A DNA stretch of 40,190 bases from a bacterium (GCA_030615855.1 JAUWYL010000008.1:1-40190); one strand, 5' to 3'. Shown: positions 2,897-39,491, counted from the first letter of the stretch. Notes: generated from the letters alone by a model not told the origin. Translations and numbers: made by a program.

Positions 2897-2979
2897 ATCT
2901 TTCCTTCAGGTATTGTTTATTCGTGTAGATTCGTGTTTTGTTTATTACATTCTTGCCTAACAGTTCGTGTCTATTCGTG

Positions 2980-4536
2980 TTACTTCTTTTTGAAGAGTTC
3001 TCCCAGGCCCTTAATTACTTCCTTTGCTGCTTCGGCCTCTTCCTTGCCCACGGCCTTCTCCAGCTCTTCCTCTACTGTCTTCTCTATCGCCTTCTTGATC
3101 ATCTTCTCCCATTTGGGCTGAAACTTGGGGTCCTGGATTGTTCCCTTTAGTTCAAAGGGCAATAAGGCATTCCCTTCTTCGTCTTTCAACTGAACCGGGA
3201 CATTTGAGGACTTGATGAGTTTGGGAGTGGTTTTTAGTGTAATGTCGAAATCGAGCCTGCCCAGCAGGGAGTAAGACCCTTGGGCAGATATTTTCATTAA
3301 GTCACTATCCAGTTTGAAATCCTCAGTCGTAATCTTGGCTTCTCTTAGGTCGAAGTGGCCGCCCAGGCTATTATAGGGAATCTCTACTAAGGAAGGAATG
3401 GGAAGGACATGGGAGAGAAAGCTTAGACATTTCTTCTGTAAGGGCAGACCGCTTATCCTTCCTTTAGAAAGATTTACAAACCCCTTTCCCTTGGCATTCT
3501 TGACCAATCTCTTTCCCCTCCCCTTTGCCTCTATCTCCAGATCAGTGGCCAGGGTTCCATAGACCATATCCTTCATTGTGGTAAGAGAAGAGAGAAGATC
3601 GTTTATGTTCATCTTCTCTATCTTTGCTTTCAAGTCATATTCTGTTTTCTTGAGATCGATCTTTGCTTCTGCCTTCAATTCTCCCTGACAGGTTAGGACC
3701 TTTAGACTCTCTATAGTAAGCAGATTGTTTCTGAACTCATAAGGGATTTCCAGTTTAGAGATCTTCAGGGGTTTCTTCGTGGTAGGATTCATCTGGGCAG
3801 TCAAATCATTCAGGCTTATCCTTCCCTTTGAGGCAAACCCTTCCTTCATCTCAATGCTGGAAGTTAAATCGATGCCGGTCTTTAAAGACTTGAGGGCTGC
3901 CTTGCTCCTATCCTCAAGAGAAACCTCCCCCTTCTTAATAGCAATTTGAGAGATGGTCAGAGCCAAACGCTTCTTTGCCTTCTCTTCTTCTGTGGCAGCA
4001 TAGGCGTAGGAAGTAAACAATTTAGGTTGTTCGCCAGTTTGCCAGTTTGCCAGTTTGCCAGTTTCTTCGCCCACCTGCTCACTTTCCCACCTGCCTGCCC
4101 CGTTGGAAGCCAAAGGTTTTCCTTCGGGGCTCACTTTCTCTGTGCCCTCTGTGGTTGCAATGCCAGAGAAGTTCCAAACACCCTTCCTATTCCTCTCCAA
4201 AAGGATCTTTGGCTCAAGTAGAATGACCTTTTTAATGACCAGTTCCCTATGGAGCAGGGGAAGGAGTTCATACTTGACCACAATCCTCTTTCCGGAAAAG
4301 ATAGGCTCTTTGGCAAAGCCTTTCTTATTGGCCACTGTCACCTTATCCAACCTTATGCCTCGTAGAAGGACAATCCTCACTCGTTCAATGTTCACTTCCC
4401 GGCCCAAGATGGGCTTCGCCTTTGTTAAGGCCAGGTCCTTCAGTTTTGGCGACGTGATGGGAATGGTGCAGAGCAAGACGATAAGAACAACAATCACCCC
4501 AACAATAATACCTCCGATTTTAACCGGTTTTTTCAT
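2980..4536 (-). CDS. AsmA family protein (short paralogue)
   Basis: N-terminal TM helix, 'LLPLLHRELVIKKVILLEPKILLERNRKGVWNFS', and an AsmA-like C-terminus '...LPFELKGTIQDPKF'. Confidence 0.85.
   Translation of the reverse strand: MKKPVKIGGIIVGVIVVLIVLLCTIPITSPKLKDLALTKAKPILGREVNIERVRIVLLRGIRLDKVTVANKKGFAKEPIFSGKRIVVKYELLPLLHRELVIKKVILLEPKILLERNRKGVWNFSGIATTEGTEKVSPEGKPLASNGAGRWESEQVGEETGKLANWQTGEQPKLFTSYAYAATEEEKAKKRLALTISQIAIKKGEVSLEDRSKAALKSLKTGIDLTSSIEMKEGFASKGRISLNDLTAQMNPTTKKPLKISKLEIPYEFRNNLLTIESLKVLTCQGELKAEAKIDLKKTEYDLKAKIEKMNINDLLSSLTTMKDMVYGTLATDLEIEAKGRGKRLVKNAKGKGFVNLSKGRISGLPLQKKCLSFLSHVLPIPSLVEIPYNSLGGHFDLREAKITTEDFKLDSDLMKISAQGSYSLLGRLDFDITLKTTPKLIKSSNVPVQLKDEEGNALLPFELKGTIQDPKFQPKWEKMIKKAIEKTVEEELEKAVGKEEAEAAKEVIKGLGELFKKK
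4033..4156. repeat. Stack of short repeats in frame within asmA paralogue 2980..4536
   Basis: (GCCAGTTT)x4 at 4033-4064; CACCTGCTCACTTTCCCAC at 4072-4090; hairpin GCCCCG...CGGGGC at 4097-4130; CTCTGTGCCCTCTGTGGTT. Confidence 0.8.
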
Positions 4537-4557
4537 CTCTTTCCCTCCTTAGTACTA

Positions 4558-4680
4558 GGTTGGTTACGGTTAAGGTTACGATGCCCGTTTCGTCTCTCGG
4601 TTACGGTTACGTCATTACCTAACCCTTTGACGTTACCGATACGGGCTTCGTTGCCCTAATTCTTTAACGTAACCTTTAGC
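4558..4680. repeat. Intergenic GGTTAC/GTAACC inverted-arm repeat
   Basis: GGTTACGGTTAAGGTTACG...CTTTAACGTAACCT. 4638-4655 matches the reverse complement of 13782-13799 at 17/18 positions. Confidence 0.65.
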
Positions 4681-4711
4681 TTATTCGTATCTTTTCAGGT
4701 TACTTCTGCGT

Positions 4712-7291
4712 TTATTCTTTTTTCTTTTTAAAGAGATCCCCAATACCTTTGATTACTTCCTTAATTGCTTCGGCCTCTTCTTTGCCTACTGCCTTTTCTA
4801 ATTGTTTTTCTGCCTCGGTCCTGATTGCCTTTTCTATCATCCTCTCCCATTTGGGTATGAATTTAGGTTTCTGGGTAGTGCCCGTTAACCTAAAGGGAAT
4901 GACTACATTTCCTCTTTCGTCTTTCAGGTGAGGTGGTATAGGAGAGGCACCGATCAAGAAGGGAGTGGGCTTAACCATGACATCAAAGTCCAGCCTTCCA
5001 TCGAGGAAGTAACTCCCAGAAGCCAAGACTTTCATCTCCTTACCATCCAGATTGAAGTCGTTTGTCTTCACTTCTCCTCCTGCCAAGTTAAAGTGGCCGG
5101 AGAGGCTATCATAGTGAATCTCTTTTATCTCTGGTATCTGAAGAATGCCCAATAAGAACCTAATGAGTTCCTTCTGGATGGTGACGCCAGTAATTTTCCC
5201 ATTAACGAGATTCAGATAGCCCTTTCCCGAGGCATTCCTCTCTAAATCCTTTTGGTCTGTTCCTTTACCGCTAATCTCTAAATCCAATCCTAAAGTGCCA
5301 TAAAACTTATCCTTCAGATTAGTATTGGCGGTCAAGAGTTTATTTAGGTCAATTTCCTTAGCATCGGCCTTTAGGGAATACCCCAATTTTTTAGGGTTAG
5401 ATAGATTCAAGCTGCCAGAGGCATTGAAGTTCCCCTGATAGAGGTTGGTCTTGAGGGATTTGATAGTGAGTAACTTTTTCGCCAATTGGAAATTATAGTT
5501 TAAGTCAGTATTTGACAGTTTTAGTTTATCAACCTTGAGTTGGGAAATGCCAATATCTCCAGCAAGATTTATCTTCTTTGTGGGACCAGTTATCCTGGTA
5601 TTTAGAGAGGCGATTCCCTCTATAACTGGTCCTTTCTTCGCTCCGGGCTTAGCAGTGATATTGGCCAGTTCACTCAGGATCAATTTATCTGAGGTCAGAA
5701 GAATATCCAATTGTGGTTTCCTGAAGTTAATAATCTGGCCCTTCAGGGCCAGATGGGAACTTCCCAGATTGGCGGAGAGTCTTGGAATATCGATGTTCTT
5801 TTTATCGAACTTTATACTTGACTTTATATTGCTCAAAGGCTGCTTGAGTTTGGCATACTTAATGGTATCATTATTCAGGTTGAGCACTCCATCTATCTCA
5901 AGCTCCTTCAGTTTCCCTTTTAGGTTGGCTCTCAGGTCAATGGTCCCTTCTGCCTCAATCTCTTTTAGAATGGGTGCCTTAACAAAAGAAGAGGCAAGGC
6001 TCTTTGCTTTCTTTAGTGGAATTTGGTCAGTAGAAAGAGAGAGATTTAACATCTTCTCCTTTTTGAAGTCGTTTATCTTGCCTTTAGCATTTAGGGATAT
6101 CTCCTCTATCTTCACATTCAATCTTATTATATCAATATCACTCTTTTCTAGGTCGATCCCTAAATCATGGTCTATAGAAAAACTCTCTAATTTTATGGGC
6201 AAAGGAACTCTTCTGGTCATGATGAAAACAAGATTGTTTAAAGCAATTTTTCCAGAAGAAGATATTTTCTCCTTTCCCCTTAATCCCACATCTAAACCGA
6301 TATCCAACTTTGCGCTCTGAAGTTTCCCAGGAAGGAAGGATTTATAGTAGGGAGCGAAATAGATTAAATTGAGGTCGTCAATATCTATTCTGGCATCTAT
6401 ATCCATCTTATCCTTAAGGGTAAAGGGATTGAGAGAGGCCTTTATCTTTAGAGGTGAAGCCATCTCTTCCGGGATACTTAAAGCGATATCGAAGTCTGCT
6501 TTCTCTTTCTGCGAGATATTGCTTACCAGGATATTGAGGTCTTCTACGGTTATCACCTGAGGGATAACCTCATCATTAAAGATTATCCTCCCCTTCTGAA
6601 TGACAATACTAGAAACAGTAACAGCCATCTTTTTTGGTTTATCTTCTCCAGTGGCAGCATAGGCTAAACGCTGATGGCCGCTGATTTTTGGCGCAGATGC
6701 CGGATGCGCTTCGCCCTGAACCATATGGTTCAGGGCTTCGCTGGCATCCGAGAGAGCATGAATATCAAGCAATGACCGCTGATATCTGCGTAAATCTGCG
6801 CTTTGATCTGCGGTCATCTGCGTCTTGCCAAGATCGGAGAAGCTCCACCTGCCCTCTTTATCTCTCTCAATAAGTATCTGGGGCTTAACCAGAACAACCT
6901 TCTTGATGACCAATTCCTTATGAATTAGAGGAAGGAGGGCATATTTAACTACCATCTTATCCGTCTTGAAGAGGGGAGTTTTAGAGAAGTCCTCATGGTT
7001 GGCGATCTCGATATTCTCAAATGCCCCTCCCCTTAAGAGATAGAGCTGGAAGTCTCCTATGCTCACCTTGCGGCCCAACTTAACCTCTACCTTGGCTAAG
7101 ACCTCATCCAAAGAGATTCCAAACTTAGAGAGCATCTTCGGTGAAATGGGAACTAAAGTAACAACTACCCCAACAGCAACAATAAGGATTAAGATGATAC
7201 TTAGAGTAATTTTCAACCATTTTTTTCTTCTCATTCTTCTTCCTTTTTCTGCCCGCTCTACTCCATAGTTTAATGCTTTTTTATTAAACAT
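4712..7291 (-). CDS. AsmA family protein (long paralogue); alternative start at 7234
   Basis: Same N- and C-terminal motifs as 2980..4536 (LLPLIHKELVIKKV...GRWSFS; PFRLTGTTQKPKF.PKWE.MI.KAI) with extra beta-rich segments in between. Confidence 0.85.
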   Translation of the reverse strand: MFNKKALNYGVERAEKGRRMRRKKWLKITLSIILILIVAVGVVVTLVPISPKMLSKFGISLDEVLAKVEVKLGRKVSIGDFQLYLLRGGAFENIEIANHEDFSKTPLFKTDKMVVKYALLPLIHKELVIKKVVLVKPQILIERDKEGRWSFSDLGKTQMTADQSADLRRYQRSLLDIHALSDASEALNHMVQGEAHPASAPKISGHQRLAYAATGEDKPKKMAVTVSSIVIQKGRIIFNDEVIPQVITVEDLNILVSNISQKEKADFDIALSIPEEMASPLKIKASLNPFTLKDKMDIDARIDIDDLNLIYFAPYYKSFLPGKLQSAKLDIGLDVGLRGKEKISSSGKIALNNLVFIMTRRVPLPIKLESFSIDHDLGIDLEKSDIDIIRLNVKIEEISLNAKGKINDFKKEKMLNLSLSTDQIPLKKAKSLASSFVKAPILKEIEAEGTIDLRANLKGKLKELEIDGVLNLNNDTIKYAKLKQPLSNIKSSIKFDKKNIDIPRLSANLGSSHLALKGQIINFRKPQLDILLTSDKLILSELANITAKPGAKKGPVIEGIASLNTRITGPTKKINLAGDIGISQLKVDKLKLSNTDLNYNFQLAKKLLTIKSLKTNLYQGNFNASGSLNLSNPKKLGYSLKADAKEIDLNKLLTANTNLKDKFYGTLGLDLEISGKGTDQKDLERNASGKGYLNLVNGKITGVTIQKELIRFLLGILQIPEIKEIHYDSLSGHFNLAGGEVKTNDFNLDGKEMKVLASGSYFLDGRLDFDVMVKPTPFLIGASPIPPHLKDERGNVVIPFRLTGTTQKPKFIPKWERMIEKAIRTEAEKQLEKAVGKEEAEAIKEVIKGIGDLFKKKKE
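6666..6826. repeat. Nested palindromic element in frame within asmA paralogue 4712..7291
   Basis: Perfect 24-bp palindrome at 6713-6736, inside CGGATGC/GCATCCG, inside CGC(A/T)GAT / ATCTGCG arms. Confidence 0.85.
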
Positions 7292-10524: not shown

Positions 10525-10529
10525 TGCTT

Positions 10530-10665
10530 TCCTATTTTGGGGTTTTTCAAAAACTGTGATAAGCGGGTGGCTCGGCAGATCTCTATGGGTGGGAGGATCC
10601 ACACCGGGCGGAGGGGCCCACGAAGAGAGAATGCCGAGGCAGGACCCGCTTCAGAATCCTATTTT
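10530..10665. repeat. GC-rich long hairpin flanked by a 9-bp direct repeat (candidate MITE or structured RNA)
   Basis: AAGCGGGT/ACCCGCTT and CTCGGCA/TGCCGAG stems; TCCTATTTT at 10530-10538 and 10657-10665. Confidence 0.55.
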
Positions 10666-11465
10666 TATATTCTGCTTTTTCCCAGTTTTAGATTCAAAAT
10701 AAAATGGAGTTTTGTATCGTAGCCTCGGATGAGTATCCTGCGCAGGAGAAAGGGGTCTTCGTTTCTACCATTCTTACCCGGAAGAGTAGAAAACGCCCCT
10801 AAATAGCCAGCCCCTTTCACCATCTCCTTAATTTTCGAATTGAATTTTCCGTAGGGATAGGCGAAGAAGATGATCGCTTCTCCTAATCTCTCCTCCAGTA
10901 TTCTTTTAGAATCCCTGATCTCAGATAGTACTTTATTCCGAGATAGTTCTAAGAGATTGGGGTGGGTGTGGGCATGGGAGCCGAAAGAGAATCCTTCTTT
11001 CTTCATCTCTTCAATCTCCTTCCAAGAGAGCATCTCCTCATTCCCCTTACTCCATCCATTCTTCTTACCCATATATCGGGTAACTAGAAATATAGTTGCC
11101 CTGAAATTATACCTTTTCAGGATGGGATAGGCATGGGTGAAGTTATCCTTATAGCCATCATCGAAGGTAAGGAGTACCGGTTTCTGGGGTAGGGTCCCCC
11201 TCCTCACTCTAACGACAGACGATGGACGAGCGTTCGCTTTGCTCACTAAGACGATGGACGATTTATCCCTTTGTTCCTCATCCCTCGTCTCTCGTCTCTC
11301 GTTCCTCGCCCCCTTAATAAACCTTAATAGATCATCGGGTGAGATAGTCTGATACCCTTTACCAGAAAGATATTCCATCTGGCTGGTAAACTTCTCCGGG
11401 CTTATTCTATACTTCTCCTTTTGGCCCGGGGAAACCTTATGATACATGAGAATAGGAATTTTCAT
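10665..11465 (-). CDS. Polysaccharide deacetylase (CE4/NodB) with a repeat-derived in-frame insertion
   Basis: PILMYHKV, LTFDDGY, FGSHAHTH, FAYPYG. Confidence 0.92.
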   Translation of the reverse strand: MKIPILMYHKVSPGQKEKYRISPEKFTSQMEYLSGKGYQTISPDDLLRFIKGARNERRETRDEEQRDKSSIVLVSKANARPSSVVRVRRGTLPQKPVLLTFDDGYKDNFTHAYPILKRYNFRATIFLVTRYMGKKNGWSKGNEEMLSWKEIEEMKKEGFSFGSHAHTHPNLLELSRNKVLSEIRDSKRILEERLGEAIIFFAYPYGKFNSKIKEMVKGAGYLGAFSTLPGKNGRNEDPFLLRRILIRGYDTKLHFILNLKLGKSRI

Positions 11466-11469
11466 CCCT

Positions 11470-11722
11470 CCCTCGCTAACGCTCGGAGTGATCCGTGATC
11501 GGTGATCTGTGATCAGTTCTAAGGGTTATTAGATAATCCGGCGATCGGGGACTGGGGGACCCGGATAGACGCCAAACAAGTTGGCTAAATTCTTCGCAGT
11601 GCTCAGAATGCCGGAGACCCGGATAACCTAGTCCCAGATAACCTGCGGGCACCCCGATAGCATCGGGGTCGGGATAGCCTTATTCTGTTCACGGTTCACG
11701 GTTCACTGATCACTGTTCACTG
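11470..11722. repeat. Composite intergenic element: heptamer arms enclosing the 47-bp core and a CCCCGAT hairpin
   Basis: (GTGATCN)x4 left arm, (TTCAC[G/T]G)x5 right arm, core at 11565-11611, hairpin at 11651-11669. Confidence 0.8.
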
Positions 11723-12460
11723 TTTGCTACTTCTCTCCCATAATCTAGCATACTTACTGAAAGTATAGAAGGAATGGCAGAGAGCTAAAATCAGGCCATG
11801 GATACCATCCAAGAAGCCCCTTTTTATAATATACATCTTGAAGAAGGTGAAAGGAGGGTGAAAGAAAACCTGATGCCATCCTGCTTTTCCTTCCCTCTCT
11901 TCTATGGCCAATTTAGCATATTTATCCATCCTCTTTAGGTATTCACCTATGGACTTGGCAGTGAAGTGCTCTATCGCGCCTTTAAGATAATCCTTTTTGC
12001 CCTCTACCTGGACCGCCTCATGAACCACCCGCTCATTAAACCCTCCTTTCCCCTTCTTGAAAAGCCTCAAGTGGTAGTCTGGATACCAACCAGAATGTCT
12101 CATCCACATTCCCAAGAAGTAGGCCTTATTGGGAATGTAACAGCCGTTACATTCTTTTCTTTGAATAGCCTCTTTTATCTCCTGAGCCAGCTCCTTGGTA
12201 ACTCTCTCATCGGCATCAATATTCAATATCCATTCTCCAGTCGTCTTCTCCAAAGCGAGGTTCTTCTGCCTTCCATATCCCATCCATTCCTTCTGGAATA
12301 TCTTATCCGTATATTCCTTGGCAATCTCTACTGTTTTATCATTAGAAAAGGAATCAACGATGATGATCTCATCCGCCCACTTCACGCTCTCCAGACAATC
12401 CCTGATATTTTCTTCTTCGTTCTTAGTGATAATGATTACAGAGATCTTAGCCACTTTCAT
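11717..12460 (-). CDS. GT2 glycosyltransferase (WaaE/KdtX-like)
   Basis: ISVIIITKNEE.NI.DCLESV, VDSFS.D, WIL.IDADE, WYPD..LRLF, VHE, GFLDG..GL. Confidence 0.92.
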   Translation of the reverse strand: MKVAKISVIIITKNEEENIRDCLESVKWADEIIIVDSFSNDKTVEIAKEYTDKIFQKEWMGYGRQKNLALEKTTGEWILNIDADERVTKELAQEIKEAIQRKECNGCYIPNKAYFLGMWMRHSGWYPDYHLRLFKKGKGGFNERVVHEAVQVEGKKDYLKGAIEHFTAKSIGEYLKRMDKYAKLAIEEREGKAGWHQVFFHPPFTFFKMYIIKRGFLDGIHGLILALCHSFYTFSKYARLWERSSKQ

Positions 12461-12480
12461 TTCTCCTTTAGGTAGAAATG

Positions 12481-12720
12481 AGTTAACAGTTTACAGCGAA
12501 CAGTTTACAGTAAAAAAACTAAAAGAGTATCAGAGCACCAGAACATCAGATGGAGAAGGACAGATATCAGAATTCAGATTAAATCTGACATTCTGACCCT
12601 CTGAATTCTCACTCTGATGTTCTGCATTCTGAGCACCACGAAGAATTTAGCCAGCTTGTCTGGCGTCTATACTGACATTCTATGGTTTTACTGGTTACTG
12701 TTAACTGGTTACTGGTTACT
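12481..12720. repeat. ~240-bp composite element, copy A
   Basis: 12501-12714 aligns to the reverse complement of 37182-37394 at about 87% by hand count. Confidence 0.9.
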
Positions 12721-13816: not shown

Positions 13817-13940
13817 ATTAAAAATCAAAATGTAAAAATTAAAATGACAATGCAAAATGTAAAATTTTCTAAGATTTAGGATTTATTGATTTTGATATTT
13901 AATATGTCATTTTGATATTTGATTTTTAATATTTGATTTT
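13817..13940. repeat. AT-rich heptamer inverted-arm repeat
   Basis: AAAATCAAAATGTAAAAATTAAAATGACA ... TGTCATTTTGATATTTGATTTTTAAT. Confidence 0.8.
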
Positions 13941-13954
13941 CTTACATGGCCGAA

Positions 13955-15043
13955 TTAGAGCATTCTTTCTAAGATCTCTTGGTCTTTGGTAATCTTCAGT
14001 TCTATCTTTAAGGCAAGAATGGATTCATTCTCTAATAATGGCTCAAGGCGCACCCCATCCTTCTGGGTGGTAATGATGAGACAGCCCCTGGCCTTAGTGG
14101 TAATCTCTTTCAGGTCTTCTTTAGTATAGGGATGGTGGTCGGAATAACGAAGTCTCTTCATAATGATTGCCCTCAGATCCTCCAATGTCTTTTCAAAGGA
14201 TTCTGGATGGGCGATACTCGATAAAGCAAGGACCTCTTTATCCTCTATAAATTCTAAGTCGACCTTCCTCTTGCTCTTCAAACCTTCTAAGTAGCAGGGG
14301 GCGTGGATGCTCTCCAGAATGGGAGCAAAGGGATTAATACTTCTTATTCTATTCTTCAAACCCTCTAAATTCCCTGCCTGATCCGTCCTGGTCAAGATGT
14401 AAAGGTCTGCCCTCTTAACGCTTCTTAAAGACTCTCTCAGTATTCCTCGCGGCAGAAGGTGTCCATTGCCAAAGGGATTAAGACTATCAATGAGTAAAAT
14501 ATCCAAATCGCGTTCCAACCTCTGGTACTGGAATCCATCATCTAAGATAAAGGTCTCTGTGTCAAAATTAGCTAGACAGTAATTCCCGCTCGCAATGCGA
14601 TTCTTTCCTACGACTATTGGGACTCCGGATAAGTTCTGAGCCAAGAGGTACGGCTCATCTCCCCCCTCCTTCGCTGACAACAATATCTTTCTTCCGTCAC
14701 TCACCACTGCTATCTTCCGATTGGTAATTGGGAATTGGGAATTGGGAATTTTCCTTTTATATCCCCTACTCAATATGGCTGTCTTTCTCCCCTTCTCTTG
14801 AAGAAGCCTTGCTATTCTTTCAACTGCAGGGGTCTTTCCCGTTCCCCCTACAGTCAGATTTCCAATACTAATCACCCTTGCCTTTAACTTTAGTCTCTTT
14901 AAAATTCGTACTCGATAGAGAAACCGGATAACCTGAAGACCCAAATAGTATATCCCAGATAGAATCAAAAATATAAGGCGCAACGAAGAAGCAAAGACAC
15001 CCTTTCTCCCATCTAAAATAATGCTCAACAAATACTTCTCCAT
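13955..15043 (-). CDS. lpxK: Tetraacyldisaccharide 4'-kinase
   Basis: ISIGNLTVGGTGKTP, LSRGY, GDEPYLLA, LDDGFQ, LLPRGILRE, DHH, TTQKD. Confidence 0.96.
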   Translation of the reverse strand: MEKYLLSIILDGRKGVFASSLRLIFLILSGIYYLGLQVIRFLYRVRILKRLKLKARVISIGNLTVGGTGKTPAVERIARLLQEKGRKTAILSRGYKRKIPNSQFPITNRKIAVVSDGRKILLSAKEGGDEPYLLAQNLSGVPIVVGKNRIASGNYCLANFDTETFILDDGFQYQRLERDLDILLIDSLNPFGNGHLLPRGILRESLRSVKRADLYILTRTDQAGNLEGLKNRIRSINPFAPILESIHAPCYLEGLKSKRKVDLEFIEDKEVLALSSIAHPESFEKTLEDLRAIIMKRLRYSDHHPYTKEDLKEITTKARGCLIITTQKDGVRLEPLLENESILALKIELKITKDQEILERML

Positions 15044-15083
15044 TTTCAGTTTTACTTTCCTACTCTTCTACTCTTTTACTTTC

Positions 15084-15998
15084 CTACTTTTCTGGTGGTT
15101 GGCTCTTCCACCTATTATGCATCCACCACCACTGAGAGGGATATTTTCTAACATACCTTTCGATGACCTTGGTAAGTCTTTGAGTATTGGTTATCAAATC
15201 TTTCTCCTTATTCCCAGTATTAACCAAAGGGACCTCGGGCTCTATGATTAACCGATGCTTCTTTCTTTCTTCTCTAATGATGCACATGGGCACAAGAGGG
15301 GCCCCGGTTCTCTGGGCAAAGACTACTGGGCCAGCGGGAGCAGAAGCCGATCTTCCAAAGAAATCAACGAATACCCCTTCTTTCCCGGCATTCTGATCGA
15401 TGGGAATAATAAGAACTTCCTCTCTTTTTAACGAGGCTAAAGCTTTCTTAATTGCCAGGCTTTTTGGTTTAGGAAGAACGGTTCCCATATTTGAGCGGTC
15501 GCGCAGTTCCTGCATGAACCGAGCCACTCTCTTATCCTTAGGGACCTTAGCTATAACACTCGCCGGATAGCCTTCGTTGGCTATTTTTCGCAGCAGAAGA
15601 GTAATATTCCCAATATGGCCTATAATTGCAACCGCTCCCCTCCCCTTAGCTAAGGCTTTATCCAGATTCTCCTTTCCCTCAATGGCTAAGAGATGGGCGT
15701 ATCTCTTTCCATACTTCATTACTCGGAGCATCTCAAAGCCACCCTGAGCGATATGGCAATAATTCTCTTTTATTATTCTCTTTAGTTCTGGAGGGGATTT
15801 TTCTTTCCCCAGGGCCATTCTGATATTCTCCAGACCTATCTTACGATGCCTCCGGTCAATATAATAAGCCAGGTGACCAATACATCTCCCTCCCCAGAGA
15901 AGGAGGCTAAGGGGAAGGATCTTTACGGGAAGAAGGATGGTGTATAGGACGAGCCCTCCCGCACCATATCTTATCTTATCCCTTAGCTTTTTTAGCAT
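15084..15998 (-). CDS. Lipid A secondary acyltransferase family protein (LpxL/HtrB-like), paralogue 4 in transcription order
   Basis: IEGKENL.KAL.KG.G, GHIGN, DQ...GVFVDFFG, YPSQWWWMHNRWK. Confidence 0.85.
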   Translation of the reverse strand: MLKKLRDKIRYGAGGLVLYTILLPVKILPLSLLLWGGRCIGHLAYYIDRRHRKIGLENIRMALGKEKSPPELKRIIKENYCHIAQGGFEMLRVMKYGKRYAHLLAIEGKENLDKALAKGRGAVAIIGHIGNITLLLRKIANEGYPASVIAKVPKDKRVARFMQELRDRSNMGTVLPKPKSLAIKKALASLKREEVLIIPIDQNAGKEGVFVDFFGRSASAPAGPVVFAQRTGAPLVPMCIIREERKKHRLIIEPEVPLVNTGNKEKDLITNTQRLTKVIERYVRKYPSQWWWMHNRWKSQPPEK

Positions 15999-16935
15999 TC
16001 ATCTCCTCTCTTCTCTTGGCCAGCCCCCGCCACCTCTTATAGATCCAGAAATATTGGGTGGGGTATCTTCTCACATAATCCTCGATAATCTTAGTAAATT
16101 TCTGGGTATTGATTAAGATATCCTTCTCCTTATCTCCGGTCAGTTCTAACTCTACTGGTGGATCGATGACTATGGTATATCCTTCATTCCCTTTCTTTCG
16201 TACAACAAACATGGGAAGAAGAGTGGCGCCGCTTCTCTTTGCTAGAGTAACTGTTCCCGGGGCCGTGGGTGCTGGCTGGCCGAAGAAGTCCACCCAGATG
16301 GCTCCCTTATCTTCAAAGAAGTTCCTATCCTGCTGGAGATAGAGGATCTTATTCTCCCTTAACCATCTCAAGGATTCTTTTACTGCTCGATGGGCTGGTA
16401 GGGCAGGAATGGAATGGATATTTATTCCTTTCTGCATATCTTTAATGAGTCGGGCTACCTTCTTATCCCGAACCTCCCGATAGAGAACGCCGAGGGGATA
16501 ACCCTCCTGGACTAATTTAGTGCCCAGAAGCATGAAGTTCCCCAGATGACCAGAGATGGTCATTATTCCCTTCCCCTTAGCTAAGGCCTTATCCAAATTC
16601 TCTTTTCCCTCAATGGTGAACATGCGATCAATAGTTTCTTGAGAGAGGCGATAACAGCGAAGTAATTCCACACTATACCTTGTTAAGTTATGGTAGATCC
16701 CTTTGGCGATCCTCTTTAGCTCTTCTTCAGATTTCTCTTTTCCAAAGGCAAGGTTCAGGTTCTTAAAGACCGTTTGATGATAGAGCCTTATGAGCCAGGC
16801 GAAATTGGCCATGCCCCGAGCAAAGAGATAGGCCATTCTCCAGGACATAGCGTTTATTAGCCAGATAGTAAACTTCAAAAGTATTCTATAGACAATCCAG
16901 TACTTCCATTCTCTTTTAATAAGCCTTCGTCTCAC
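15976..16935 (-). CDS. LpxL/HtrB-like acyltransferase, paralogue 3
   Basis: GHLGN, VDFFG.PA.T..G, YPTQYFWIYKRW. Confidence 0.85.
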   Translation of the reverse strand: MRRRLIKREWKYWIVYRILLKFTIWLINAMSWRMAYLFARGMANFAWLIRLYHQTVFKNLNLAFGKEKSEEELKRIAKGIYHNLTRYSVELLRCYRLSQETIDRMFTIEGKENLDKALAKGKGIMTISGHLGNFMLLGTKLVQEGYPLGVLYREVRDKKVARLIKDMQKGINIHSIPALPAHRAVKESLRWLRENKILYLQQDRNFFEDKGAIWVDFFGQPAPTAPGTVTLAKRSGATLLPMFVVRKKGNEGYTIVIDPPVELELTGDKEKDILINTQKFTKIIEDYVRRYPTQYFWIYKRWRGLAKRREEMNAKKAKG

Positions 16936-17867
16936 CTCTGTGTCCTCTGTGTTTCTTTCTGTGTCCTCTGCGGTACTGTCTTCCAGCGCTTATAGGTCCA
17001 GAGCCACTGCTCGGGATATTTTCTAACGTAGGATTCAATAATCTTAGTAAACTTAGCACTATTTACCAAAATGTCTTTTTCTTTATTACCGGTTACTTCT
17101 AACTCTACGGGAGGACCAAAGATAATTCTGTGTCTATTATCCACTTTTCTAACAACGAACATGGGCAGAATAGCAGCTCCGGTTCTCTTAGCCAATACTA
17201 CCGGCCCGATTGGGGTTGCTGCGGGATAACCAAAGAAATCGACAAAGACCCCTTGAGGAGAATCACGGTCTGCCTGGATGCAGAGAACCTTATTCTTCCT
17301 TAGCCATTTTAAGGATTGGCGAACTGAAGCATAAGAAGGAGAAGTGGGTATAAGGTCAATCCCTAAGTGGCGTCCAATATTAAAGAAGAGTTTTACTACT
17401 CTGGCATCACTTGCTCCATAAATGAAAGAGGCACAGGAATAACCTTCCTGAGCCAATTTAGCGCCCATCAAGGGGAAATTGCCCAGATGACCAGAGAGTC
17501 CGATCACCCCTTTTCCTCGAGCCAGAGCAGTATTTAAATATTCTCTTCCCTGGATAGTAAATATTCTATCGATCTCTGTCTGGGAAAATTTGAAGACGCG
17601 TAATAGCTCACAGATGTTTTTAGCAATATTGCGGTAGGTCTCCCGAGCAATGGCTCTAATTTCATGAGAATCCTTCTCTCTTCCGAAAGCGCGATTAAGA
17701 TTATTAAAAACTATTTGACGCCTGACACCCAGTATCCAGGCCAAGCCAGCCAGACCATTTGCCAGGCCATACATCATCCTTAGGGGTAGAATATTTATCA
17801 GAGCAATAACCATCTTAAGCGCTACCCATCCTATCTTATGTTTGATCCACCTTCTCACCTTTTTCAT
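16932..17867 (-). CDS. LpxL/HtrB-like acyltransferase, paralogue 2
   Basis: GHLGN, GVFVDFFG.PAATP.GP, YPEQWLWTYKRWK. Confidence 0.85.
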   Translation of the reverse strand: MKKVRRWIKHKIGWVALKMVIALINILPLRMMYGLANGLAGLAWILGVRRQIVFNNLNRAFGREKDSHEIRAIARETYRNIAKNICELLRVFKFSQTEIDRIFTIQGREYLNTALARGKGVIGLSGHLGNFPLMGAKLAQEGYSCASFIYGASDARVVKLFFNIGRHLGIDLIPTSPSYASVRQSLKWLRKNKVLCIQADRDSPQGVFVDFFGYPAATPIGPVVLAKRTGAAILPMFVVRKVDNRHRIIFGPPVELEVTGNKEKDILVNSAKFTKIIESYVRKYPEQWLWTYKRWKTVPQRTQKETQRTQR

Positions 17868-17884
17868 CCTAATATCCTTCCAGC

Positions 17885-18790: not shown

Positions 18791-20091
18791 TCCAATAATT
18801 TCCCTATCAGTTCTACAGTTTTCTCTGATGCTCCTTGATGTTCTTTAACAATCCTTTGGGCCTTTTCGCCCAATCCCTCTCTTTCTTCAGCGCCTCTTAG
18901 AAGGCTTAAGACCTTCTCTAAGAGTTCTTCCTTATTCCTGATCTGAATCCCCCCTTCCCCTTCTTTAAGCAATCGTGCGCTCTCTATGAAGTTGTGCATG
19001 TAGGGGCCGAAGAGGGGTGCCTTGCCTAAGGCAGCAGGCTCCAGAATATTATGGCCCCCAATAGGAACCAGGCTTCCTCCCACAAAGACCACTGTTGCTA
19101 AGGAATAAACCTTGGCCAATTCGCCGATAGTGTCAAGGAGAATGATCGGTCGGTGATCGGTGATCGGTGATCGGTGATCAGTAATTTGGGAGCGGCGGAT
19201 ATAAGAGAGATTTCTATTTTTACATAAGGACTCGACTTCTGGGATGCGTTCTGGGTGGCGAGGGGTAAGGATGAGTCTTAGGTCTGGAAATTCTTCTTTT
19301 ACTTTTTGATAAATATCTAAAATAATCTCCTCTTCTTTGGGATGGGTGCTTCCTGCGACCAGAACCAGATCCTTTAAGGAAATCTTTAGTTCTTCAGCCA
19401 ATTTCTCCATATCTGGGGGTTCGGTCTTCAGTCCATCGAACTTGACATTGCCTGTGGTATAGACCCTCTCCTCTGAAACCCCTAAAGAGATGATTCGCTC
19501 CTCATCCAGTTTAGACTGCATGCTGAATAGATCGATATTAGAGAGTACTCTTTTTAGAAAGGGTTTTATTATTCTATAGCCTTTATACGATTTAGATGAA
19601 ATCCTACCATTGACTACTGCCAAAGGGATTTTCCTTCTCTTTGCTTCCCTTATGAAATTGGGCCAGAGCTCAGTCTCAACCATAATGAAGAGCTTTGGCT
19701 GGATAACCTTCAAAACTTTATTTACGATCCATTTAAAGTCTAAAGGAAAGTAGATGATTTCCTTGGGATCAGAAATGGCCTTCCTTGCCATATCCTGGCC
19801 AGTATCAGTCACTGTAGAGATTAAAAAGTTATCGTTTGGAAATCTCTTTTTTATAGCATCTATTATGGGAGAGGCAGCGATTACCTCTCCCACACTCACC
19901 GCATGAACCCAGATGATATCTTTATTCTTTACTTTAGGAATTAACCCCGCTCCTGTGTACAGGGGGGGGGTAAACCCCAGACGCTGTTTCAATCCCTTCT
20001 TATACTTTCCTTTAGTAATCATTCTGAATAAAAAGTAGGGACTGGAGAAGAGCAAAAATAAAAATAGCAAGAGACTATAGATAAGATACAT
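18787..20091 (-). CDS. waaA: Kdo transferase
   Basis: IWVHAVSVGE, ST.T.TG, YFPLD, ETELWPN, TGNVKFD, AGSTH..EE, PRHPER, DTIGEL, GGHNILEPA. Confidence 0.97.
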   Translation of the reverse strand: MYLIYSLLLFLFLLFSSPYFLFRMITKGKYKKGLKQRLGFTPPLYTGAGLIPKVKNKDIIWVHAVSVGEVIAASPIIDAIKKRFPNDNFLISTVTDTGQDMARKAISDPKEIIYFPLDFKWIVNKVLKVIQPKLFIMVETELWPNFIREAKRRKIPLAVVNGRISSKSYKGYRIIKPFLKRVLSNIDLFSMQSKLDEERIISLGVSEERVYTTGNVKFDGLKTEPPDMEKLAEELKISLKDLVLVAGSTHPKEEEIILDIYQKVKEEFPDLRLILTPRHPERIPEVESLCKNRNLSYIRRSQITDHRSPITDHRPIILLDTIGELAKVYSLATVVFVGGSLVPIGGHNILEPAALGKAPLFGPYMHNFIESARLLKEGEGGIQIRNKEELLEKVLSLLRGAEEREGLGEKAQRIVKEHQGASEKTVELIGKLLE

Positions 20092-20114
20092 ACACCCTCG
20101 GTAACGCTCAGGTA

Positions 20115-20187
20115 AATCCCAAATTCCAAACTCGAAACTCTAAAAAACTTTCCTAATTTTGAGTTTTGAGTTTTGAGTTTTAAGTTT
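20115..20187. repeat. Heptamer inverted-arm repeat
   Basis: AAATCCC AAATTCC AAACTCG AAACTCT ... (TTTTGAG)x3 TTTTAAG. Confidence 0.7.
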
Positions 20188-22782: not shown

Positions 22783-22792
22783 TTAAGCCTCC

Positions 22793-23008
22793 ATTGAACA
22801 TTGAGCATTGAACATTGAGCATTGAAATCCGAAATCCAAAACCAGAAATCCGAAAAAATGTCTAAATGCCTCAATGACTAAATTTAACATTTGGAAATTT
22901 GAGCATTGATTCGTTATTCGTCATTCGGGTTTCGCCATTTAATTTGGTGATTGGTTATTACTTTTTTCTTTTCATTTTGCATTGTTAACTTTGCATTTTG
23001 CATTTTTA
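22793..23008. repeat. Stacked heptamer repeats between lpxB and msbA
   Basis: (ATTGA[A/G]C)x4, GAAATCC units with an inverted TTCGGGTTTCG arm, and TTTTGCA units. Confidence 0.75.
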
Positions 23009-25075: not shown

Positions 25076-25094
25076 ACTTCTCCCTACTATTGTA

Positions 25095-25210
25095 AATTAG
25101 TTGGATTAGTATATTAGGTGGATTTTTACCCAACTAGTCCAACCAATCCACCTATTTTAAGATACCGAAATTTCAATAAAACAAGGTTCTCCGATGAAAT
25201 CGGAGGTTCT
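25095..25210. repeat. Inverted-arm repeat plus CTCCGATGAAATCGGAG hairpin
   Basis: TAGTTGGATTAG...TAGGTGGA / TCCAACCAATCCACCTA; hairpin at 25189-25205 flanked by AGGTTCT. Confidence 0.7.
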
Positions 25211-26913: not shown

Positions 26914-26931
26914 TTTTCGTTAAACCTCCTA

Positions 26932-27008
26932 AGTAACCAGTAACTAGCGAACAGTAAAAAACTGGTTACTGTAAACTGTTAACTGTGAACTCCCCGATGA
27001 AATCGGGG
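26932..27008. repeat. Empty heptamer shell plus CCCCGATGAAATCGGGG hairpin
   Basis: AGTAACCAGTAACTAGCGAACAGTAAAAAACTGGTTACTGTAAACTGTTAACT. Confidence 0.8.
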
Positions 27009-27009
27009 G

Positions 27010-29414: not shown

Positions 29415-29418
29415 ATTT

Positions 29419-29672
29419 CACCACGAGATAGGTAACCACAGATTTTCACAGATTCTCACGAGATTTTGAAAACTTTCTCTCTCGCTAATCTGTGTTAATC
29501 TTGTGGTTCATTTTGCATTTTGCATTGCTAATTTTTCATTTTTCATTGATCTTCTTTCCCACTTTTTCCGTTACCCCGTTACCCCGTTACCCCGACACCT
29601 CGTCCCTCATCCCTCGTCCCTCGGTCACTCCCACTCTCCCGCCTACTCACTTTCTCTCTTTCTCTCTTTTAC
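29419..29672. repeat. Stack of four or more short-repeat types between skp and lpxD
   Basis: CACAGATT/AATCTGTG arms, TTTTGCA units, (CCGTTACC)x3 and CCTCGTC units. Confidence 0.75.
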
Positions 29673-29674
29673 AA

Positions 29675-30184: not shown

Positions 30185-30246
30185 TTTCTTCCTCCTTTTA
30201 TTCATTATCCGTGCAAATCCGTTTTTAATCCGTGCCTATCCGTGTT

Positions 30247-32484: not shown

Positions 32485-32532
32485 ATGAAATTCTTAAAGG
32501 AATTCTCCCCTGAAACCCCTTGATGTAAGTAA

Positions 32533-32640
32533 GGAAAAAAGGGAAACAGGGAAAAAGGGAAAATAGGCATTAGAAATGGGAAATTGGAAATTGGAAATTC
32601 TCTCACTTTCTCACCTGCTCACTTTCCCACTTTCTCCCTT
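32533..32640. repeat. 7-8-mer purine/pyrimidine repeats between clpC and bamA
   Basis: GGGAAA(A/C)A units, GGAAATT units and CTCACTTT units; 32612-32630 is identical to 4072-4090. Confidence 0.7.
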
Positions 32641-35162: not shown

Positions 35163-35196
35163 CTCAAACCTCCCAATAGTCTCTTTATCGTTAGCC

Positions 35197-35288
35197 AGTT
35201 AATGGTTTACCCGCTCCCCGATTCACCGGGGTCGCTGTTTACCGCTTACGGTAAAAAACCGTACACCGTAAACCGTTAACCGTAAACC
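35197..35288. repeat. Heptamer shell with an internal CCCCG/CGGGG hairpin
   Basis: GGTTTAC...GCTTACGGTAAAAAACCGTACACCGTAAACCGTTAACCGTAAACC. Confidence 0.75.
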
Positions 35289-35293
35289 AATTG

Positions 35294-36352: not shown

Positions 36353-36367
36353 TTTACTCCCCTAAAA

Positions 36368-36596
36368 TTAGTTGACAAGTTGACAAGTTGATAAGTCAAT
36401 ACGTTAATAAGGTAATTGGGTAACGGTTAAGGTTAGGTAGTTAGTTTGGTTGTTAGGTTAGGTAGTTGGTCTTTTTAAAAGAACACCTAACCCTTACCCA
36501 ACTACTTGGTATAACCCCTTCTATTACTCCCCTCTTCGTCGCCTTATTCTCTTATTTTTCCTTATTTGCTTATTAACTTATTAACTTATTAACTAT
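36368..36596. repeat. Nested element: octamer arms enclosing GGTTAG/CTAACC arms
   Basis: AGTTGACAAGTTGACAAGTTGATAAG ... CTTATTAACTTATTAACTTATTAACT, with inner GGTTAAGGTTAGGTAGTT / CCTAACCCTTACCCAACTAC. Confidence 0.75.
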
Positions 36597-37150: not shown

Positions 37151-37175
37151 CGCTTCTCCTCACTATCGCTCGGAT

Positions 37176-37407
37176 AGTTTACAGTAACCAGCGAACAGTA
37201 ACCAGCAAAACCACAGAATATCAGTATAGACGCCAGACAAGCTGGCTAAATTTTTCGCGGTGCTCAGAATGCAGAATAGCAGAATGAGAATTTAGAAGGT
37301 CAAAGTATCAGATTTTGTCTGATTTCTGATAACTGACCCTCTCCATCTGATATTCTGGTTATCTGATGCTCTTTTACTTTTTTACTGTAAACTGGTTACT
37401 GGTTACT
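37176..37407. repeat. ~240-bp composite element, copy B (inverted relative to copy A)
   Basis: Reverse complement of 12501-12714; core at 37226-37272. Confidence 0.9.
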
Positions 37408-37409
37408 AT

Positions 37410-38282: not shown

Positions 38283-38284
38283 CT

Positions 38285-38680: not shown

Positions 38681-38694
38681 AATTATTCCTCCTT

Positions 38695-38756
38695 AAACGC
38701 AGATTGTCGCTGATAAATCTGCGGTCATCTGCGTTTTGATCTGCGGTCATCTGCGG
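38695..38756. repeat. ATCTGCG-unit repeat overlapping the lolD stop codon
   Basis: 38727-38755 matches 6794-6822 at 28/29 positions. Confidence 0.8.
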
Positions 38757-39429
38757 TCCTGCCATCCACCAGGCGAACCATGCGCTCGGCTCTCTTAGCT
38801 AACCCCTCATTATGGGTAGCAATAATGAGGGTCTTTCCCTTCTTTTCACTCAACCTCCAGAGAAGGCTATGTATCGCCTCGCCTGTTTTCCTGTCCAGGT
38901 TTCCGGTTGGTTCATCTGCTATGAGAATATCTGGCTCATTTACTAAAGCCCTTGCTAAAGCAACCCTCTGCTGTTCACCTCCCGATAGCTCAGGCGGCCT
39001 GTGATCTAACCTCTTTCTCAGCCCCATCTCTTCCAATATCTCCCTCGCCCTCTCCTTAACTTTGGACATCGGACTTCGGACTTTGGACATTATTAAACCA
39101 GGCATCATCACATTCTCTAAAGCAGTGAACTCGTTCAAGAGGTGATGAAACTGGAATAAGAAACCAATCCTTCTACTTCTCAAAAGAGCAAGTTTTCCGT
39201 CATTTAGATTATAGACTTCCTCTCCCCCTAAGAAGACTTTCCCTCTCGTTGGTCTATCCAGGGCACCCAGAAGATGGAGAAGAGTGCTCTTCCCCACGCC
39301 AGAGGGTCCAACGATGGATATAATCTCCCCCTCCTTTACCTTTAGATTCACTCCTTTTAAAACTGGGACGGCCTGACCATCCTGGTAATAGGTCTTGTAT
39401 AAATTTTTGGCAACAAGAATATCATCCAT
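38725..39429 (-). CDS. lolD: Lipoprotein-releasing ABC transporter ATP-binding protein
   Basis: GPSGVGKS, FQFHHLL.EFTALENV, LSGGEQQR, ADEPTGNLD; lies downstream of lolC/E. Confidence 0.93.
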   Translation of the reverse strand: MDDILVAKNLYKTYYQDGQAVPVLKGVNLKVKEGEIISIVGPSGVGKSTLLHLLGALDRPTRGKVFLGGEEVYNLNDGKLALLRSRRIGFLFQFHHLLNEFTALENVMMPGLIMSKVRSPMSKVKERAREILEEMGLRKRLDHRPPELSGGEQQRVALARALVNEPDILIADEPTGNLDRKTGEAIHSLLWRLSEKKGKTLIIATHNEGLAKRAERMVRLVDGRTADDRRSKRR

Positions 39430-39443
39430 CGCAGCAACCTCTA

Positions 39444-39491
39444 AAGTAACCAGTTTTTTTACTGTAAACTGTAAACCGTTAACCGTTAACC
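39444..39491. repeat. Empty heptamer shell
   Basis: The reverse complement reads GGTTAACGGTTAACGGTTTACAGTTTACAGTAAAAAAACTGGTTACTT. Confidence 0.8.

Follow-up and report, generated by a model that had tools for sequence, protein, structure and literature searches.

Very small hairpin cassettes as the probable source of the word-array spacers in a bacterial lipid A gene region

The nearest described system to the elements treated here is the intervening sequence (IVS) of 23S rRNA that bears an open reading frame (ORF). In such an IVS a PF05635 gene lies in the loop of an inverted-repeat stem, according to the available text of the source (PMC4990558). The IVS of Coxiella burnetii, 428 nt long, is regarded there as selfish, and its stem is cut by RNase III (PMC4990558). 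Cassettes with a gene in the same position were found in the 1.375-Mb draft genome GCA_030615855.1 (45 contigs, 93.6% complete; G000 below), and their traces were followed through one stretch of it, the window, which is the whole of contig C14 (JAUWYL010000008.1; 40,190 bases). An IVS lies in rRNA and, in the same text, has a unique 28-bp stem (PMC4990558), whereas the cassettes here lie between the protein genes of operons and have arms made of arrays of short words. Forms bearing a PF05635 gene occur in 8-11 copies per 1.4 Mb, together with many gene-less forms, and the window itself holds only the latter.

The spacers of the window probably serve very small selfish hairpin cassettes as both graveyard and nursery. 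When complete, a cassette measures about 0.45-0.6 kb and consists of an up arm of 2-8 short words, a ribosome-binding site (RBS), one small gene, and an inverse down arm. What the gene encodes is a four-helix-bundle protein belonging to the 23S-rRNA-IVS family, a GxxExxY nuclease of the PD-(D/E)XK type or, less often, a GIY-YIG nuclease. The elements nest in older ones, the contents of the spacers are quickly replaced, and pieces are tolerated in frame in the loops and tails of proteins.

Repetitive extragenic palindromic (REP) sequences, their doublets (REPINs) and the REP-associated tyrosine transposases (RAYTs) resemble this system, being abundant intergenic hairpin doublets that insert beside or within one another and are linked with a small gene which they flank (PMC3116915, as far as its available text goes). 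The RAYT gene is single-copy in that account (PMC3116915), whereas no Y1/RAYT gene is found here, the cassette genes are multi-copy and decaying, and the word families are many. Inverted arms are abundant here, but their units are non-palindromic tandem words. MITEs (miniature inverted-repeat transposable elements) have inverted ends, are small and non-coding, and occur in multiple copies, as do the gene-less families described below. They differ in that no fixed-length target-site duplication is seen here at the defined ends of two GxxExxY copies. The ends of the present elements are common to PD-(D/E)XK or four-helix-bundle cassettes.

Arrays of heptamers are known from other bacteria. The TAACTGA repeats of Beggiatoaceae form 7-nt intergenic arrays near gene starts, and no link to a gene family is made in the accessible part of the paper (PMC4679880). 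GGGAATC occurs in Xanthomonas as 70-75 arrays in convergent inverted pairs, for which the available sections state generally no association with mobile elements and give no gene-family link (PMC4692102). Mobility or a repeat-binding protein are raised as possibilities in the text available (PMC4679880, PMC4692102). In contrast to these repeats, many word families coexist here and two families of small genes are associated with the arms. Short tandemly repeated repetitive (STRR) arrays were reportedly described from heterocystous cyanobacteria by Mazel in 1990; the 7-nt tandem units enriched in the intergenic DNA of the present genome are similar, but the host is a lipid-A-making non-cyanobacterium and the units differ from the STRR1-3 consensus. 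The cyanobacterial small dispersed repeats (SDR), which Elhai and co-workers are said to have treated in 2008, are very small mobile modules that reportedly nest, one of them, SDR5, inserting precisely into HIP1; to our knowledge no associated genes or word-array arms have been described for them.

A free-standing GIY-YIG or PD-(D/E)XK homing endonuclease gene is a minimal selfish unit whose copies enter sites similar to its own flanks. Only the GxxExxY and GIY-YIG cassettes encode a nuclease family as that class does. The targets here would be dispersed arrays and not one conserved gene. The Rickettsia palindromic elements and the Correia/NEMIS elements are small palindromes tolerated in frame in protein genes, but their sequences are different, and the word-array arms and the link to cassette genes are features of the present system. 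The literature located on the GxxExxY and TIGR02436/PF05635 families, as far as its accessible text goes, mentions them in annotation only, and no published description of armed cassettes was found in it.

Word arrays and dispersed hairpin families

Tandem Repeats Finder (TRF) returned 67 rows for the window. The initial annotation had described most of the longer spacers as built from degenerate tandem units, often set as left and right inverted arms, and both points were confirmed: one or more arrays of 7-10-nt units lie in 17 of the 22 spacers of at least 40 nt, and folding in gene sense gave z < -2 in 12 of the 22 spacers but in no coding piece among 22 of matched length. The ten unit words named at that stage are all in the sequence; TRF gives nine of them (or a rotation), and ATTCGTG is seen at 2917-2979. 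Arrays take 970 of the 3,042 spacer bases in the window. For the genome as a whole, 1,775 TRF rows merged into 1,490 arrays, compared with 266 in one Markov-2 simulated genome, and the excess appeared at period 7 (366 vs 37), 8 (277 vs 34), 10 (223 vs 57) and 14 (101 vs 6). Within the intergenic 10% of the genome lie 202 of the 366 period-7 arrays. The share of bases lying in arrays is 15.9% in intergenic and 1.6% in coding DNA, and some of the 'coding' arrays really lie in leaders because the gene calls are crude. The 366 arrays comprise 150 distinct 7-mers, the commonest being AACCAGT (34), AAACCGT (19) and AAAATGC (18).

A genome self-BLAST, which had been suggested as a check, gave non-self matches for all 22 spacers, 1 to 81 each, on up to 24 contigs. 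The modules had also been said to recur kilobases apart, and they do so as a composite pair in the window and as multi-copy families genome-wide. The spacers at 12461 (248 nt) and 37151 (259 nt) are inverted copies of one three-layer composite, with 12513-12714 (202 nt) 87% complementary to 37182-37383. This composite contains a 47-nt non-repetitive module that is present in 15 copies in the genome, always with an ATCAGA/TCTGAT-word hairpin after it, and in the window at 11565-11611, 12624-12670 and 37226-37272, in both orientations relative to the host genes. A reading of the module as a sigma-54 promoter was dropped, the GG-to-GC spacing being off by one by eye. Some gene-less hairpins are multi-copy families, with shared loops, 3-15 copies and lengths of 69-200 nt. 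Copy numbers are underestimates, because repeats and cassettes break assemblies. Three contig ends of the genome fall inside four-helix-bundle genes (C2:4-150, C6:1-111 and C7:1-111, in G000 contig coordinates), and many contigs of the five relatives compared below stop at these spacers.

Local slippage of the STRR type, with any likeness between sites arising by convergence on slippage-prone words, is quite unlikely to be the whole explanation. Slippage accords with the variation of unit numbers and variants between close relatives, for example at 39430-39503 and 38681-38724, with the hypervariable loops of LpxK, KdtA and LolD, where most relatives carry a different short repeat, and with the diversity of the period-7 units. 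However, it cannot make matched inverted arms, and there are composites of 60-240 nt, built around non-repetitive cores, whose copies are 77-98% identical and lie on up to 24 contigs. Moreover, the arms travel with genes to new sites, and in distant genomes, too, a single word class goes with a single gene family, as described in the next section.

The window had no Rfam match to a known RNA family at gathering score, and the same search found no rRNA in it. The imperfect hairpin of about 100 nt at 10541-10654 is not a known RNA, because nothing in Rfam matched 10450-10750 at E up to 1. It overlaps the opening ~20 codons of ORF 9418-10602, which was called from a GTG start; the true start of this heptosyltransferase gene probably lies further downstream.

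Gene-bearing cassettes and their arms

The initial annotation had noticed no mobilising gene in the window, and indeed any TIGR02436, TIGR04256, GIY-YIG or Y1 transposase matches are all outside C14. Elsewhere in the genome there are 11 matches to TIGR02436 (four-helix-bundle) at E <=0.01, of which 9 are over the cut-off and 8 are full-length, as well as 6 GxxExxY genes (TIGR04256) and 2 small GIY-YIG genes. Together with five relatives, two of the same genus (G001, G002) and three of the same family (G003-G005), the six genomes gave 37 four-helix-bundle, 22 GxxExxY and 18 GIY-YIG matches. Pfam confirmed the assignments (PF05635 at E = 1e-28 to 1e-30, PF13366 at 1e-31 to 1e-43, PF01541 at 7e-16), and the structure of a four-helix-bundle relative has been solved (2GSC, five chains). 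The seven four-helix-bundle cassettes of G000 with both neighbours called are all located between protein-coding genes.

Arms were scored by local alignment of the 120 nt upstream of a gene with the reverse complement of the 120 nt downstream; 1,234 genes of G000 with 105-nt flanks gave a baseline median of 14 and a 95th percentile of 21. Cassette loci in the six genomes were labelled Lnnn (for example L047 and L065), and 30 of the 37 four-helix-bundle matches (the other 7 having no locus or being fragments), 20 of the 22 GxxExxY matches (two fragments left out) and 10 of the 18 GIY-YIG matches (UvrC-size ORFs and fragments excluded) were analysed. It had been suggested that similar arms flank all three kinds of gene in other genomes. 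In the related genomes this held for the four-helix-bundle and GxxExxY genes, which scored at least 21 in 25 of 28 and 15 of 20 cases, but not for the GIY-YIG genes (only 2 of 9). The small GIY-YIG genes have mostly short unique inverted ends instead of word arrays. The spacer 26064-26139 was considered as linked to GIY-YIG, the G-rich motif at its end being like one GIY-YIG flank, but it had no BLAST match to the locus and was rejected.

The proposal that the window modules could be empty forms of such cassettes is supported for a number of them by BLAST of the window against the cassette flanks, which gave matches at eleven places in nine modules, at 86-100% over 23-45 nt. These include 4027-4062, 6794-6825, 12528-12618, 13821-13941, 30207-30235, 35258-35288, 37333-37367, 37379-37401 (100%, 23 nt) and 38717-38755 (97%, 39 nt).

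A gene and its arms reach new sites together, as a single copied unit. Arms are shared by 10 of 10 protein pairs at least 90% identical, including pairs at non-orthologous sites (three different sites), and are alignable in none of 27 pairs at 50-70% identity. Between the GxxExxY copies C30:3069 and C45:36814, identity is ~97% over the stretch bounded by an 18-nt inverted repeat and its inverse, and their flanks are unrelated. Cassette genes also decay and are deleted, giving gene-less hairpins. In-frame stops were found in four-helix-bundle matches of G000, G001, G003 and G005; at one site the gene is intact in G002 and a 69-residue fragment in G003, with another hairpin in G000; and at 25092-25207 G005 retains ~12 N-terminal four-helix-bundle codons between ATGCGTT arms, nested in AGTTGACA arms. 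At two other loci (L058 in G002 and L064 in G004) stop-less four-helix-bundle ORFs run through the down arm into the next gene, forming fusion ORFs of 255 and 275 residues with a pseudopilin-like partner in one and a NUDIX-like partner in the other.

The association extends beyond the family. A sample of 150 genomes besides G000, 145 of them outside the family, was searched, taking one best locus per genome; TIGR02436 was found in 53 and TIGR04256 in 31 of the 145. Arm scores of at least 21 were obtained for 20 of 28 distant four-helix-bundle and 13 of 26 distant GxxExxY loci, against 0 of 27 and 0 of 24 for controls displaced 400 nt outward. The two families differ in their words: four-helix-bundle arms are made of many unrelated 7-9-nt words, and GxxExxY arms of one class, CRCRRAK (CACGGAT, CACAGAT, CGCAGAT, CACGAAA and similar). 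Among GxxExxY genes, three or more CRCRRAK words lie beside 18 of the 26 distant ones and 12 of the 20 in the family, compared with 1 of 29 distant and 2 of 30 family four-helix-bundle genes. A narrower pattern set in advance yielded 60 words, and 26 in controls. The distance between neighbouring CRCRRAK words is exactly 10 nt in 268 of 505 cases. The genome contains 148 CRCRRAK clusters (112 intergenic), against 1 in simulation, and only 6 GxxExxY genes.

Turnover of the spacers and pieces within genes

Gene order is kept in the five relatives, whose coding DNA is 74-99% identical to the window. Orthologous spacers were recovered in 94 of 115 possible cases; one contains N, and 93 were compared. 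Fixity across relatives had been named as an observation that would speak for local slippage only, and at least 80% of positions are kept in just 5 of the 93. Length differs by 50 nt or more in 57, spacers of 240-251 nt in the window measure 0-2 nt in G001 and G002, and one site often carries the hairpin of another word in another genome.

Comparison with the relatives also gave the presence/absence differences with sharp insertions that had been sought, together with the nesting that had been described. At the 12461 site G002 has only the 59-nt outer hairpin, within the loop of which the window has ~190 nt more, and G004 is without the inner 96 nt of the window (GAGCAC on both sides) and has a different 82-nt insert instead. 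At 26980 G001 has a clean 30-nt insertion of two 15-nt GC hairpins after AAACTGTT; an identical 30-mer follows AAACTGTT at an unrelated locus of G000 (C20:26188-26406), and this double hairpin may be a tiny element in its own right, directed to a particular word. The 29434-29674 site has 19 nt in G001 and, in G002, a 101-nt gene-less element with GIY-YIG-type ends. The short direct repeats said to flank the hairpins are real, but their meaning is ambiguous: they are unreadable as target duplications because the insertions sit in tandem arrays. Contigs from four public DNA runs, at 90% likeness, show gaps: 32521-32600 is skipped in X2 and X3, where the shorter side spans 127 nt and 30 nt, respectively (in X3 with 8 other letters between); 37211-37383 is skipped in both, the shorter side being just 24 nt long; and 35194-35310 is skipped in one contig of X2. 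At that likeness the contigs may come from related species, and they therefore lend weak support to turnover.

Some spacers act as hot spots for cassettes. In one spacer the four-helix-bundle cassette is a different one in each of three genomes (C35:26600-27174 in G000, L047 in G002, L049 in G005). Another holds a four-helix-bundle cassette in G002 (L067) and a GxxExxY cassette in G000 (C30:3050-3828).

This turnover bears on the explanation that the arrays are host elements acting in mRNA stability, processing, translation start or regulator binding, with the small genes as regulators. Many arrays do stop within a few bases of a start codon or RBS, strong hairpins are present in 12 of the 22 spacers, a leader motif lies ~5 nt before the ATG of 24 called starts and is kept at orthologous sites, and a post-transcriptional role was argued for the TAACTGA repeats, in the available text, by MacGregor (2015; PMC4679880). 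Nevertheless, a regulatory or RNA-structural function is unlikely as the general explanation: sites whose flanking genes are 80-99% identical carry unrelated words or nothing, with those 5 of 93 conserved and several of 0-2 nt, the orientation is unfixed, the 47-mer composite occurring both ways in the window, and the cassette genes decay.

The leader motif, CCGAGCG-N2-5-GCGAGG, ~5 nt before ATG, is found in the window at 11469-11488, 20835-20853 and 37160-37176, with a variant at 20096-20112. It has 38 matches in the genome, 24 of them adjoining a called start, compared with 12 in simulation, gives the GAGG of the RBS, and is kept at orthologous sites in G003-G005. A reading of CCGAGCG-N-GCGAGG as a hairpin was rejected for want of convincing pairing.

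The features are collected in Table 1.

Table 1. Arrays, hairpins and in-frame pieces of the window, with copies, cassette matches and states in relatives. Copy counts, non-self matches and C-numbered loci refer to G000.
Position	Feature	Strand	Support	Copies, matches and relatives
2917..2979 (spacer 2897-2979)	ATTCGTG-word arrays, GxxExxY-type word class		12 non-self matches, 11 contigs	G002: extra 24-nt GC hairpin within one unit (insertion at 2939)
4027..4064	GTTTGCCA x4.5 in AsmA-like gene 2980-4536	-	TRF	89% over 36 nt to down arm of G005 four-helix-bundle cassette; inside 37-49-residue stretch without counterpart in G002 and G005
4029-4064	GTTTGCCA array		TRF
4560..4680	Gene-less hairpin family F1, GGTTACG arms around CGATGCCCGTTTCG / CGATACGGGCTTCG core, ~120 nt		z = -2.7	15 BLAST matches covering >=60%, self included; core also in up arm of four-helix-bundle gene C30:13711; other words in G001, G002, G005
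6700..6830	CGCAGAT x4 then ~50-nt GC hairpin, all translated, in AsmA-like gene 4712-7291	-	z = -4.7	97% over 29 nt to GxxExxY up arm; ~25 codons absent from G002
10541..10654	~100-nt imperfect hairpin, not of tandem units		z = -4.9	4 copies, 91-97% identity; more copies in all five relatives; 21 nt only at G003 site
11273..11312	CCTCGTC array in polysaccharide deacetylase gene	-	TRF	Inside 36-residue insertion absent from G002, G003, G004
11466..11724	Composite: leader motif, GTGATCN x4, 47-nt module, GC hairpin, CTGTTCA x5.7 into GT2 stop			0 nt in G001 and G002
11488-11514	GTGATCC/GTGATCG array		TRF
12461..12720	Three nested layers: outer AACAGTT/ACTGGTT hairpin, 47-mer module, inner CAGAAYATCAG/CTGATRTTCTG hairpin		z = -6.4	Inner arms match G004 four-helix-bundle cassette
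12688-12720	TTACTGG array		TRF
13819..13940	Gene-less derivative of AAAATCA-armed four-helix-bundle cassette	+		Colinear with up arm, first ~28 nt of ORF and down arm of cassettes L065 and L055; ~350 nt of ORF missing
14720..14750	ATTGGGA x4.4 in LpxK loop	-	TRF	Nearly same in G002; different repeat in each of other four relatives
15044..15093	CTACTCTT array across spacer and LpxL C-terminus		18 non-self matches	Nearly unchanged in G001 and G002
16935..16970	CCTCTGTGT array, C-terminal tail of LpxL 16932-17867	-	TRF; CRCRRAK cluster	Tail shorter or different in G001, G003, G004, G005
19150..19179	TCGGTGA x4.3 in KdtA loop	-	TRF 100% match	Loop variable among relatives
20092..20187	CCAAAYTC words facing TTTTGAG x4.4, up to DUF374 stop			Other words in orthologous spacers
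22783..23008	Array row CATTGAA, GAAATCC, AAATGCCT, ATTCGTC, TTTGCAT		TRF; 39 non-self matches	GAAATCC words resemble arms of L070, L069 by eye, no BLAST match to cassette flanks; 30 nt in G003
22824-22855	GAAATCC array		TRF
22969-23006	TTTGCAT array		TRF
25092..25207	69-nt hairpin family with TTAGTTGGATTAG arms, and small GC hairpin 25188-25207		z = -6.3	9 matches covering >=70%, self included; empty AGTTGACA-armed hairpin in G001 and G002
26928..27009	AACCAGT/ACTGTAA hairpin, A6 loop, and GC hairpin at lpxC-fabZ stop		z = -3.8
29434..29674	77-nt CACAGAT...ATCTGTG gene-less hairpin (29434-29512), then TTCATTT, CCGTTACC, CCTCGTC, CTCTCTTT arrays			77-nt hairpin: 3 copies with common loop
30206..30246	ATCCGTG x4, 10-nt spacing, GxxExxY-type half arm before ompH		29 non-self matches	93% match to down arm of GxxExxY cassette C30:3069
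30207-30249	ATCCGTG array		TRF
32531..32640	AAGGGAAA, ATTGGAA, TCTCACTT arrays; TCTCACTT gives ClpC C-terminus		TRF	29-43 nt in G001, G002, G004
35198..35290	GTTTACCG/AACCGTAAACCGT hairpin (93 nt) with nested GC hairpin		z = -3.9	11 matches covering >=60%, self included; 94% over 31 nt to up arm of G004 four-helix-bundle cassette
36353..36594	AGTTGACA arms, inner GGTTAGG hairpin family (36405-36510), CTTATTAA arms to mcsA stop			Inner family (106 nt): 10 matches, self included; site 0-2 nt in G001, G002, G003; AGTTGACA arms enclose four-helix-bundle gene in G002 (L047)
36370-36396	AGTTGACA array		TRF
37151..37409	Inverted second copy of 12461-12708 composite, 47-mer at 37226-37272		87% over 214 nt; z = -6.7	100% over 23 nt to down arm of C26:32587 four-helix-bundle gene; 97% over 35 nt to L057 arm
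38681..38758	CGCAGAT...ATCTGCG hairpin, right arm encoding LolD C-terminus		CRCRRAK cluster	97% over 39 nt to G001 GxxExxY up arm
38717-38758	ATCTGCGGTC array		TRF
39059..39088	ACTTCGG x4.3 in LolD loop	-	TRF	Loop variable among relatives
39446..39491	AACCAG-T7-ACTGTAA/AACCGTT hairpin		TRF	G002: 57-nt insertion (35-nt nested GC hairpin and units), AGTAACCAG on flanks

The window has 33 long ORFs, all on the minus strand and each with a Pfam match. They comprise alaS, recX, three AsmA/DUF748 genes, ugd, a Kdo kinase gene, glycosyltransferase genes, a deacetylase gene, lpxK, four lpxL paralogues, kdtA, msbA, lpxB, lpxI, lpxA, lpxC-fabZ, lpxD, ompH, bamA, clpC, mcsB, mcsA, ilvE, a PilZ gene, lolD and lolC. 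LpxB has a fused N-terminal oxidoreductase domain of the GFO/IDH/MocA type (23006-25075), LpxC and FabZ are fused (27010-28392), and the four LpxL-type acyltransferase paralogues are in tandem (15084-18790). Alignment of orthologues found repeat pieces in frame in at least eight genes, where at least seven had been claimed. Repeat-derived insertions or variable repeat loops occur in two AsmA-like genes and in those for the deacetylase, LpxK, KdtA and LolD, and C-terminal tails are encoded by repeats in LolD, ClpC and one LpxL. The LolD tail differs in G001, G003 and G005, and the ClpC tail is unlike that of four of five relatives. The pieces had been thought to add loops, C-termini and RBS context, and they were seen in all three settings.

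Movement of the cassettes and its wider meaning

The elements had been taken for non-autonomous ones spread in trans. The dispersal part of that idea stands, the modules being dispersed, turning over fast and in many cases matching cassette arms; mobilisation in trans is inferred. No match to the reverse transcriptase domain RVT_1, Y1_Tnp (PF01797), DDE_Tnp_1, rve or the TnpB C-terminal domain was found in the 93.6% complete genome, and the RAYT that had been suggested as one gene to seek behind the arms fails to appear, there being no PF01797 match in G000. A transposase or RAYT might lie in the unassembled 6% of the genome, or have been carried by a lost plasmid or phage, and might have moved the elements in trans as classical MITEs. 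The gene-less families with inverted ends and multiple copies would suit this, as would an assembly that is 93.6% complete when repeats assemble poorly. We nevertheless regard it as very improbable, given the missing Y1_Tnp, DDE_Tnp_1, rve, TnpB C-terminal and RVT_1 matches in G000, the lack of a target-site duplication at defined ends, and the match of the arms to cassettes with small genes of their own.

Several points weigh against the reading of the spacers as cassette remains. The relatives are incomplete drafts whose contigs often end at the spacers, the genes were crude longest-ORF calls, and BLAST E-values are over-generous on repetitive words. Arms across a gene are not specific, because the genome is full of hairpins, and large ordinary genes can score high too (58 for C23:18162-19370). 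At least three CRCRRAK words were present in 5 of 26 GxxExxY controls, and the CRCRRAK pattern was widened after the distant loci had been seen. The arrays at 15044-15093, 20092-20187 and 32531-32640 and those of the LpxK, KdtA and LolD loops match no cassette arm; arrays of this kind may be plain slippage. The pair C30:3069 and C45:36814, the sole one with defined ends, has no target-site duplication. Decay in place is rarely traceable because filled and empty orthologous states mostly carry different words, and co-orientation of cassettes with both neighbours (13 of 15, against a genome baseline of 0.90) is uninformative. The mechanism of movement itself is something that we infer, and the four-helix-bundle cassettes carry no nuclease.

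If the spacers do consist of such remains, the words would be putative binding sites of the cassette's own protein, the case being strongest for GxxExxY, with CRCRRAK words one helical turn apart. The PD-(D/E)XK and GIY-YIG nucleases may drive a homing-like cut-and-repair copying in which the arms act as homology, and gene-less arrays of the same word would therefore serve as targets. In RNA, the paired arms could form a stem open to cutting by RNase III, as in rRNA intervening sequences, and insertion inside operons would therefore be tolerable; an RNase III gene is present in G000. Replication slippage would then alter the number of units and erode the arrays.

It is possible, though we rather doubt it, that heptamer and decamer arrays in general, including STRR, TAACTGA and GGGAATC, are for the most part traces left by a single undescribed superfamily of selfish elements of minimal size that work in this way. 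Each element would be a gene for a small protein with two inverted arrays of its own putative binding word. GxxExxY nucleases would read the helical-turn-phased CRCRRAK and home the gene plus arms into arrays that lack a gene, each four-helix-bundle protein would recognise fast-changing words of its own, and RNase III would remove the insert from operon transcripts. Such elements would also be a main source of new spacer DNA, of RBS contexts and of the surface loops that essential proteins carry in lineages with small genomes. If the cassette reading is right, three puzzles would be joined, namely the heptamer arrays, the function of the four-helix-bundle and GxxExxY proteins, and the origin of ORF-bearing rRNA intervening sequences. 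The proteins should then bind the words of their own cassettes, gene-less arrays should be cut by the nuclease, and RNase III should cut the arm stems.

In a 1.4-Mb genome in which no ordinary transposase was found, intergenic DNA is still rewritten within a genus, and the rewriting extends to lipid A, lipopolysaccharide-transport and Clp genes with element-derived loops and tails. For annotation this means that such spacers should be masked as element remains, and not taken as regulatory sites, and that adjacent start codons should be assigned with care.

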